Below, one piece after another: positions 526 to 2,131 of a stretch of DNA of 2,443 bases; the first letter of the stretch is position 1, and the number at the start of each line of letters is the position of its first letter. A program made the translations under genes and the position numbers. Below the pieces are notes generated by a model, which made no database searches, was not told the DNA's origin, and was given only the letters and a program-made list of their open reading frames with translations. Source of the stretch: Naegleria gruberi (lineage: Eukaryota); the NCBI GenBank assembly GCA_000004985.1, contig GG739261.1. The stretch is one strand, 5' to 3'.

Positions 526-565
526 AGAAACGAATTTCAAATAATCTCCATTCTGAGATGGTACT

Positions 566-663
566 AAGTGACGGTGAAACGGGGGACGGATGAGACGGAG
601 AACACTCAGTTTCTTACTACAGACGGGAGAAGAGCATCCGCTTAATACTGTTGACGGTAAACC
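566..663. repeat. GC-rich (about 50% GC) GACGG island, left arm of a degenerate inverted repeat pair
   Basis: Five same-strand GACGG pentamers lie at 570-574, 585-589, 594-598, 622-626 and 653-657. The terminal direct repeats TGACGGTGAAAC (569-580) and TGACGGTAAACC (652-663) bound them. The surrounding sequence is about 30% GC. The reverse complement of 559-606 aligns block by block with 2008-2100. Confidence 0.6.
617..636 (-). promoter_or_regulatory. Polypyrimidine tract followed by AG on the coding strand upstream of gene 1, candidate splice-acceptor-like signal (cis 3' splice site or trans-splice site)
   Basis: The minus strand reads GATGCTCTTCTCCCGTCTGTAG (plus 638-617). It is followed by a second C/T-rich stretch, TTCTCCGTCTCATCCGTCCCCCGTTTCACCGTCACTTAG (plus 604-566). 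The next AGs on that strand are at plus 566-565 and 556-555, just before the ATG at 525. Plus-strand purine richness makes the whole left island pyrimidine-rich on the gene strand. Confidence 0.25.
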
Positions 664-697
664 AAAATGGAAAATGCACAACCTTAGTAACACCGAT

Positions 698-730
698 AAA
701 TTGAATGATACATTTAATAAAATTGAATTT
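698..730 (+). promoter_or_regulatory. Two same-strand AAATTGAAT motifs 21 bp apart (698-706 and 720-728, the second extending to AAAATTGAATTT at 719-730)
   Basis: The 9-mer is exact and is repeated a third time at 1629-1637. It contains the octamer AAAATTGA, which is known as a Mimiviridae early-promoter element. This orientation would drive plus-strand transcription into the spacer. Confidence 0.3.
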
Positions 731-941
731 TCCTATTATATTAAATAGATTCTCTTGTGTTGTTTGGCTTGAATTGTTGGAACGAAAACCAAGCAAGGTA
801 TTACGAGAGTTTGGTTGATTTTTTGAAGCAAGGTTTGTTTGTTAAGTTAAGAATATGTGAAAAAATATTTCAACATCTAGTACGTGATGTACTTTGATGA
901 TTCTTCGAGTGGTTTCACATCCGTAAGCTGCCAAACTTTCA

Positions 942-1639: not shown

Positions 1640-2004
1640 AAAGATGACCAACTTTTTCAACATCTACACCTTATAGGGATCACACTCATATCAATTAATC
1701 CATATTTTTCATTTTCAGTAAAAAATCAAAATTTGAACTTTCCAAAGTTTACTATTTACCTGAATTGTTTGAGAAGGAAACTTCTCAAAAAAAGAAGGGT
1801 AGTTTCACAACAGTGTTTTAATCAACTAAGTCAAATTATTTCATGTCATTCTTAAATTTGAGACAGAAAGAGAGAAATCTTTGATTTTAGTGAATATTCC
1901 ACAACAGAGGTGTTGTGTTTGTTTGTGAATTTATTTCCATTTTAAATTTTTCCATTTTGGATTTATTATAGAATGATACATTAGTATTTCCCTTAATTCC
2001 ATTC

Positions 2005-2102
2005 TTGCTCCGTCTCTTACTGCTGACTGTCCCGTTTGACAGCTTATTACATCTGACGGATCCCGTTAGACGGGATTTACCGTCACACCGTCAATTAGTA
2101 TC
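2005..2102. repeat. GC-rich (about 48% GC) GACGG/CCGTC island, right arm of the inverted repeat pair
   Basis: It contains CTCCGTCTC (2008-2016), CCCGTTTGAC (2031-2040), GACGG (2055-2059, 2069-2073), CCGTCAC (2080-2086) and CCGTCAATTAGTA (2088-2100). The first island, read in reverse complement, has the same blocks in the same order: CTCCGTCTC, CCGTCCCCCGTTTCAC, CGTCAC, TTAGTA. Confidence 0.6.
2054..2085 (-). terminator. Interrupted GC-rich hairpin in the 3' flank of gene 2, candidate 3'-end formation or termination signal
   Basis: The outer stem pairs TGACGG (2054-2059) with CCGTCA (2080-2085), 6 bp. The inner stem pairs ATCCCGT (2060-2066) with ACGGGAT (2070-2076), 7 bp. The loop is TAG and there is a TTA bulge on the 3' side. 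It starts 47 nt downstream of the gene 2 stop on the coding strand. Minus-strand AATAAA copies follow further downstream at plus 1962-1967 and 1930-1935. Confidence 0.35.
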
Positions 2103-2131
2103 TCCTCCTCCATTCTCTTTGATATATTCCA

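Follow-up and report, generated by a model that had tools for sequence, protein, structure and literature searches.

Probable insertion of a non-autonomous TIR transposon in the first repeat of a DUF4116 gene

Where does a repeat gene begin when its homology and its reading frame both continue above the first ATG? The question is raised by gene 1, which lies on the minus strand of the 2,443-nt stretch of DNA analysed herein (the window) and whose open reading frame matches DUF4116 (Pfam PF13475; 244.1 bits, 4.9e-74) in 6 stretches with a strict 25-residue period. The part of the gene defined by Pfam and translation occupies positions 1-554 and exits the window at position 1. The initial annotation left the start of gene 1 undecided and offered three options: an island of high GC content and a spacer interrupting a longer ancestral gene, a splice or spliced-leader acceptor with the true 5' exon elsewhere, and non-ATG initiation. 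In the present study, several lines of evidence converge on the first of these. Gene 1 has very probably received a 1553-bp non-autonomous cut-and-paste transposon with terminal inverted repeats (TIRs) at 555-2107, inserted in its first DUF4116 repeat at the E-N-G-D codons. On this account, the apparent start of gene 1 in mid-repeat arises from the landing of the element in the first repeat, which separated the gene from its true start.

The open frame above ATG 525

The frame of gene 1 (minus strand) is free of stops from TAG 735-733 to ATG 525-523, a run of 207 nt (69 codons) with no in-frame ATG, just as the initial annotation had described, and the only near-cognate starts within it are GTG 693, TTG 681 and CTG 609. 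The ATG was also correctly placed in mid-repeat, since it occupies position 24 of the 25-aa unit YSNNKELMMEYIKENGDYLKFVSME. The extent of the upstream homology is another matter. Thirteen codons above the ATG had been assigned to the repeat register, and this assignment stands for ten of them (QNGDYLKFVS, 555-526) and fails for the other three, VPS (564-556), which belong to the inserted element together with the first base of the Q codon (555). The DUF4116 homology ends exactly at 554/555, where the TIR begins; the abrupt switch had been placed at about 565, and the repeat had been thought to run straight into the GC island, at the edge of which it halts. In a Pfam comparison, the present upstream peptide aligns with DUF4116 from the same Q, whose codon straddles 555, and covers profile positions 10-26 with 17.3 bits, the gathering cut-off of the model being 24.9 bits.

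The remaining 59 open codons (ENSILL...HRHLVPS; 556-732, minus strand) are not coding sequence of gene 1; they are the left end of the element, read in phase with gene 1. No Pfam family matches them, they show no similarity to DUF4116 and they hold no ATG, which agrees with the earlier remark that the translated island lacks both repeat character and a start codon. Shuffling left 556-732 free of stops in 4.6-7.8% of cases, and in its six frames the element has 5 runs of 59 or more codons without a stop. The open frame over 556-732 is a coincidence, a 5-8% chance event helped by the locally raised GC content, and not evidence of coding. In other words, the frame of the 3' body of gene 1 stays open by chance through the left end of the element, and ATG 525-523, the first in-frame ATG downstream of the insertion, is simply the first one left in the body of the gene.

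A non-ATG start inside this element-derived frame, at GTG 693, TTG 681 or CTG 609, would produce a chimeric protein in which an element-encoded N-terminus of 28-56 residues precedes the DUF4116 body. A bacterial-type gene finder would call such a frame, which is open from 732 to 526 with GTG, TTG and CTG codons in phase. We nevertheless regard this outcome as improbable, given that the extension has no protein family match, that its openness is within chance (5-8%) and that no promoter-like or ribosome-binding signal stands out (15 promoter-like sites vs 12.6 expected); promoter and terminator scans stayed at background level. Moreover, a chimeric open reading frame is a consequence of the insertion and not an alternative to it. 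Non-ATG initiation, the third option of the initial annotation, is unneeded as an explanation of the upstream homology and survives only as a possible secondary consequence, from GTG 693 or TTG 681, provided that the host makes use of such start codons.

Ends, islands and interior of the probable transposon

The element at 555-2107 is non-coding, with an AT-rich interior, and is bounded by TIRs and by a target-site duplication (TSD). The left TIR core, GAGATGGTACTAAGTGACGGTGAAACGG (555-582, plus strand), is the inverted partner of the right core at 2080-2107 (minus strand; reverse complement GAGGAGATACTAATTGACGGTGTGACGG), and this pair is the longest inverted repeat in the window, spanning 28 nt, imperfectly, with 22/28 positions (79%) complementary. 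Immediately outside the two arms, CTCCATTCT is present at 546-554 and again at 2108-2116 as a perfect 9/9 direct repeat. Both copies touch the TIR arms directly, and there is no ambiguity about the ninth base on either side. On the minus strand, the left copy encodes part of the E/Q-N-G-D of the first DUF4116 unit. The combination of TIR and TSD was assessed by taking every 9-mer direct repeat in the window and scoring the adjacent 28 nt for complementarity, with 1000 first-order Markov resamples for comparison; the real value was 22/28, and the simulated values had a mode of 13 and a maximum of 19 in 1000. The termini of the element (GAGATGGTACTAAGTGACGG...; GAGATGGTACTAAGTGACGGTG...) are flanked by the 9-bp TSDs. 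Two features of class II elements are thus present, namely TIRs at both ends and a TSD directly abutting them; the 79% identity between the TIR arms counts against a transposon.

The GACGG island had been singled out by the initial annotation, and the enrichment is real. In the window, 11 GACGG sites were found vs 0.74 expected, and 0/200 shuffles reach 11. Ten of the 11 lie inside the element, at most about 105 bp from its two ends and mostly in mirrored orientation. The left subterminal region, which is the GC island next to gene 1 (555-674, plus strand), carries the motif at 570, 585, 594, 622 and 653 and, at 659-674, the first of two inner inverted blocks. In the right subterminal region, which forms a second GC island (1948-2107, minus strand), GACGG is found at 2010, 2080 and 2088 on the minus strand and at 2055 and 2069 on the plus strand, together with the partner block at 1948-1963 and a hairpin. 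The inner blocks are 94% complementary and lie about 105-145 nt inside either end, and the similarity between the left and right ends persists patchily to about 120-160 nt beyond the 28-nt core. The GC content of the islands rises to 0.49 vs about 0.30 elsewhere. The two GC islands are the two ends of one element, and the GACGG subterminal repeats are presumed, by analogy, to be transposase-binding repeats. The hairpin (2054-2085) has 13 pairs with opposed GACGG/CCGTC motifs, a folding energy of -11.9 kcal/mol and z = -4.76; it is confined to the right subterminal region, where it corresponds to a 37-nt gap in the alignment of the left and right ends.

The coding capacity of the element was examined with translation tables 11, 6, 4, 10, 15, 30 and 31, and, among the eleven stretches of 45 or more codons without a stop, the ten longest were compared with Pfam. 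No open reading frame of the element matched a family under these seven tables, and the element contains no tRNA and no Rfam family. A sub-threshold Rfam match to mir-5365 at 1822-1894 (24.8 bits vs a gathering score of 70, E = 0.036) is almost certainly due to chance. Some short repeats were also observed in the interior. At the centre of the element (1298-1345), the motif GTACATGT/ACATGTAC is clustered, with 4 matches vs 0.07 expected, and this cluster contains the back-to-back palindrome GGTACATGTGAATTTT/AAAAAGTACATGTACC. At 965-985, a short tandem repeat, (AATAGTAGT) x 2.3, adjoins CATCATC-rich direct repeats at 942-968.

The probable 5' end of gene 1 beyond the element, and competing explanations

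The missing N-terminal sequence of gene 1 lies directly across the element. Deleting 555-2116 in silico, that is, the element and one TSD copy, joins 2117 and the sequence beyond it to 554 in the frame of gene 1. The joined sequence reads ...MVRKYSNNKELMMEYIKENGDYLKFVSMELKNDKELVLQAVKNSG... and, directly after a stop, YSKNMVRKYSNNKELMMEYIKENGDYLKFVSMELKNDKELVLQAVKNSG...; ...NNKELMMEYIKENGDYLKFVS... and ...ATCAAAGAGAATGGAGATTATTTG... are the sequences predicted across the junction in an uninterrupted close relative and at an empty site, respectively. The repeat is rebuilt across the junction as ...NNKELMMEYIKENGDYLKFVSME..., so that the spanning unit is a complete one of 25 residues, and a conserved G read at residues 20, 45 and 70 of the restored protein gives an exact 25-aa period. 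The gain is also apparent with the Pfam model. The junction peptide, which has 17.3 bits at present, reaches 32.9 bits when restored (E = 4.8e-8, profile 1-26), and nine or so residues from the far flank add 15.6 bits. The best DUF4116 stretch of the restored protein (residues 8-56) covers profile positions 1-49 of 49, and restored gene 1 as a whole scores 259.9 bits vs 244.1 unrestored. A third feature of class II elements is found in this result, as the removal of the element and one TSD copy restores both the frame and a complete DUF4116 unit.

The insertion has left gene 1 in two pieces, a 5' fragment of 17 codons (2168-2117 together with the right TSD copy) and a 3' body (554-1). The severed 5' end, MVRKYSNNKELMMEYIKE(NG), at 2117-2168 on the minus strand, belongs to a frame that becomes continuous after the in-silico excision, and the in-frame ATGs of the restored gene stand at 2168-2166, 2135-2133 and 2132-2130. 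Today the fragment reads MVRKYSNNKELMMEYIKENGGGDTN and ends at TGA 2093-2091 inside the right TIR. The first option of the initial annotation, in which island and spacer interrupt a longer ancestral gene, is thereby supported, with the left island, the spacer and the second GC island at 2000-2107 as parts of one TIR element (555-2107), a perfect 9-bp TSD around it and the missing 5' end at 2117-2168. The perfect TSD, and the fact that both gene fragments are still open and repeat-like, suggest that the insertion is recent. The body of gene 1 may be expressed from ATG 525, with a loss of about 27 residues (one repeat unit), or it may be a young pseudogene.

Herein, we propose a course of events modelled on characterised elements. 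A transposase encoded by an autonomous copy at another site and acting in trans would bind the 28-nt TIRs and the GACGG-bearing subterminal repeats, the target would be cut with a 9-bp stagger, and repair of the gaps would leave the duplicated CTCCATTCT on both sides. We infer the mobilisation in trans and the function of the GACGG motif by analogy.

The 5' fragment of gene 1 overlaps the end of gene 2, a second DUF4116 gene on the minus strand (2132-2443; Pfam 59.3 bits, 2.7e-16), whose N-terminus is outside the window. The coding sequence of gene 2 runs from 2443 to 2135 with the stop TGA at 2134-2132, in a frame that differs from that of restored gene 1, and this stop overlaps the ATGATG (2135-2130) of restored gene 1, the third ATG lying at 2168. 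Such a stop/start overlap (2130-2168) is compact and typical of prokaryotic or viral gene arrays. The C-terminal part of gene 2 aligns to residues 110-185 of gene 1 with 28% identity over 78 residues; this alignment includes the tail that follows the repeats and suggests that genes 1 and 2 are tandem DUF4116 paralogues rather than one gene. Alternatively, gene 2 and gene 1 could be linked by a frameshift or by a GT-AG intron, several of which can be drawn, and the main conclusion would be unaffected.

Tandem paralogy bears on another explanation, in which gene 1 has its original start at ATG 525, no insertion took place, and the upstream codons and 2117-2168 are decayed remnants of a tandem duplication. 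Degenerate fragments between tandem paralogues would be unsurprising. However, it is only after the TIR-bounded segment and one TSD copy are removed that these fragments join in frame with the 25-aa register exactly kept, and that removal adds 15.6 bits to the Pfam score and completes profile 1-49. The geometry of TIR plus TSD would be left unexplained, and we consider a native start at ATG 525 very unlikely.

Equally little credence can be given to an intron, or to a spliced leader or distant 5' exon joined at an acceptor site that the pyrimidine-rich island strand would supply, the second option of the initial annotation. The sequence TCTCAG/AATGG at 558-550 (minus strand; the slash marks the junction) does look like a 3' splice site, and hypothetical GT-AG introns can be drawn elsewhere, from gene 2 to restored gene 1. 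Nevertheless, reading of the sequence gave a GT, GC or AT intron start at 0/10 TSD offsets. With no GT-AG, GC-AG or AT-AC pair at any of these 10 offsets, precise canonical splicing-out of the element is impossible. The 5' fragment, moreover, meets TGA 2093-2091 before the sole donor-like site, G/GTAAAT (about 2081-2076). A distant 5' exon or spliced leader is also unnecessary, because the missing coding sequence is found on the other side of the element.

The segment might instead be one that is eliminated during development, in the manner of ciliate germline DNA, with the 9-bp repeats serving as "pointers" and the gene intact in the expressed genome. TGA, the stop codon of gene 2, is the sole stop in many ciliates; the DNA is rich in AT, and precise removal that keeps one repeat copy does restore the frame. 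The extended TIRs and the clustered subterminal motifs are, however, hallmarks of a transposon, and neither TAA nor TAG serves as an in-frame sense codon among the 347 codons of genes 1 and 2. Nothing else points to a ciliate either, and developmental elimination also appears highly improbable. The least credible explanation is that the inverted repeats bound a segment inverted by site-specific recombination: inverted repeats of ~28 nt do flank a non-coding segment beside genes, but inversion makes no flanking direct repeats, the frame is restored by deletion and not by inversion, and no recombinase gene is present in the window.

Possible relatives of the element and meaning of the proposed insertion

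The element at 555-2107 fits a non-autonomous TIR transposon and, going by the length of its TSD, a candidate member of the Mutator-like group ("MULE-like"). Members of the Mutator/MULE superfamily have long TIRs (about 100 bp or more), short or imperfect ones being known as well, and maize Mu termini also begin GAGAT. Like non-autonomous Mutator-like elements, the element has a 9-bp TSD, ends whose similarity is degenerate over more than 100 bp, a position within a gene, a length below 5 kb and a non-coding interior that would depend on transposase in trans. Duplications of 9 bp, a hallmark of the Mutator-like group, have been reported for maize Mu, Hop (Fusarium) and EMULE-Ei1 (Entamoeba invadens), and of 9-10 bp for Mutyl (Yarrowia), the TIRs of which are imperfect and 22 bp long (PMC2725143); the range for the Mutator superfamily is 7-12 bp (PMC10741241). 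Unlike MULEs, this copy contains no MURA-type transposase (no open reading frame with a Pfam match), and its conserved TIR core is 28 nt vs about 100-220 bp in classical MULEs.

Several other groups share some of these features. Short TIRs combined with many short subterminal repeats recall hAT Ac/Ds, in which the subterminal repeats, within 100-250 bp of either end, serve as transposase-binding sites, and non-autonomous hAT derivatives of 1-2 kb commonly disrupt exons. The ends of Ac are CAGGG/TAGGG, and the terminus of the element has no resemblance to them. The bacterial IS groups with 9-bp duplications include IS1, IS4/IS10/IS50, IS903 and IS256. The element is like IS derivatives in its 9-bp TSD and its imperfect TIRs (IS range 18-30 nt), and the compact layout of the window, in which the stop of gene 2 overlaps the ATGs of gene 1 (TGATG), would be in keeping with a prokaryote or a large virus. 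Unusually for an IS derivative, the element comprises 1.5 kb without an open reading frame and has subterminal motif arrays of about 100 bp. The TSD is 8 bp in hAT, 3 bp in CACTA and TA in Tc1/mariner (PMC10741241). These three were ruled out by the perfect 9-bp TSD. With MITEs, the element shares TIRs, a TSD, the lack of coding capacity and a presumed mobilisation in trans; MITEs are mostly shorter than 500 bp and have high copy numbers (PMC10741241), and the 1553 bp of the element exceed the usual MITE size.

Further copies were sought in sequence collections that do not include the source genome. A degenerate 28-nt TIR pattern had 0 matches in viral, prokaryotic-genome and metagenome contigs. 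A looser 21-nt pattern had 0 viral and 2 metagenome matches, which is at chance level, and the matched sequences have nothing in common with the element beyond the motif. With a 15-nt pattern, 110 viral stretches were retrieved, and blastn showed no similarity to the window in the loci compared. The window itself had no blastn match in 50,697 phages or 72,556 plasmids, nor was there a match in 185,579 prokaryotic species genomes. Altogether, the viral, prokaryotic, metagenome, phage and plasmid collections yielded no second copy, empty site or autonomous partner. One match to the 21-nt pattern, in the soil-metagenome contig Ga0137405_1387995, places the motif inside a long inverted repeat of more than 300 bp near both contig ends (400-700 and 7020-7320), which encloses about 6.3 kb with short open reading frames only; this contig is unrelated to the window apart from the short motif.

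Protein searches also concerned the interrupted gene. The closest proteins are DUF4116 proteins from metagenomes, 39-55% identical (39% for the top match), and other matches come from a giant-virus MAG (41%) and a Clostridia MAG (34%). Among the protein matches, no uninterrupted orthologue of gene 1 was close enough to reveal an empty site, and their N-termini are heterogeneous. The literature on DUF4116 contained nothing that bears on its function or host. In addition, a 63-kb contig of JGI 3300042114 (region 13715-14314) encodes a DUF4116 homologue (P0007) as well as a 1313-aa protein with a weak DUF4116 match, a PcfJ-like giant protein and a Cas12f1-like TNB (TnpB-type) gene, and is probably a phage or another mobile element carrying DUF4116 repeats.

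A more far-reaching reading, to which we give a small share of belief, is that the element is the first copy seen of an undescribed TIR family, characterised by a GAGATGG... terminus, GACGG subterminal repeats and a 9-bp TSD, in a type of genome where such elements are barely known (e.g. a giant virus or an unsampled AT-rich protist). In that event, the element might be recently or currently active, or it might be precisely removed like a germline-limited sequence, with gene 1 still expressed intact.

The conclusion that gene 1 was interrupted by a transposon has direct consequences for annotation. The start of gene 1 should not be modelled at ATG 525, nor should the gene be extended to 732; it is an interrupted gene whose 5' end is found at a distance of 1.56 kb, and what looks like 1.5 kb of intergenic DNA with two GC islands is one mobile element. 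The case is one of textbook insertional gene disruption, an ordinary kind of event. The defined termini and the 9-bp TSDs provide a direct handle for finding the remaining members of the family. Finally, the TSD without mismatch and the undamaged flanks point to recent mobility, and thus a transposase that is active, or was so until recently, is probably encoded in the host genome.
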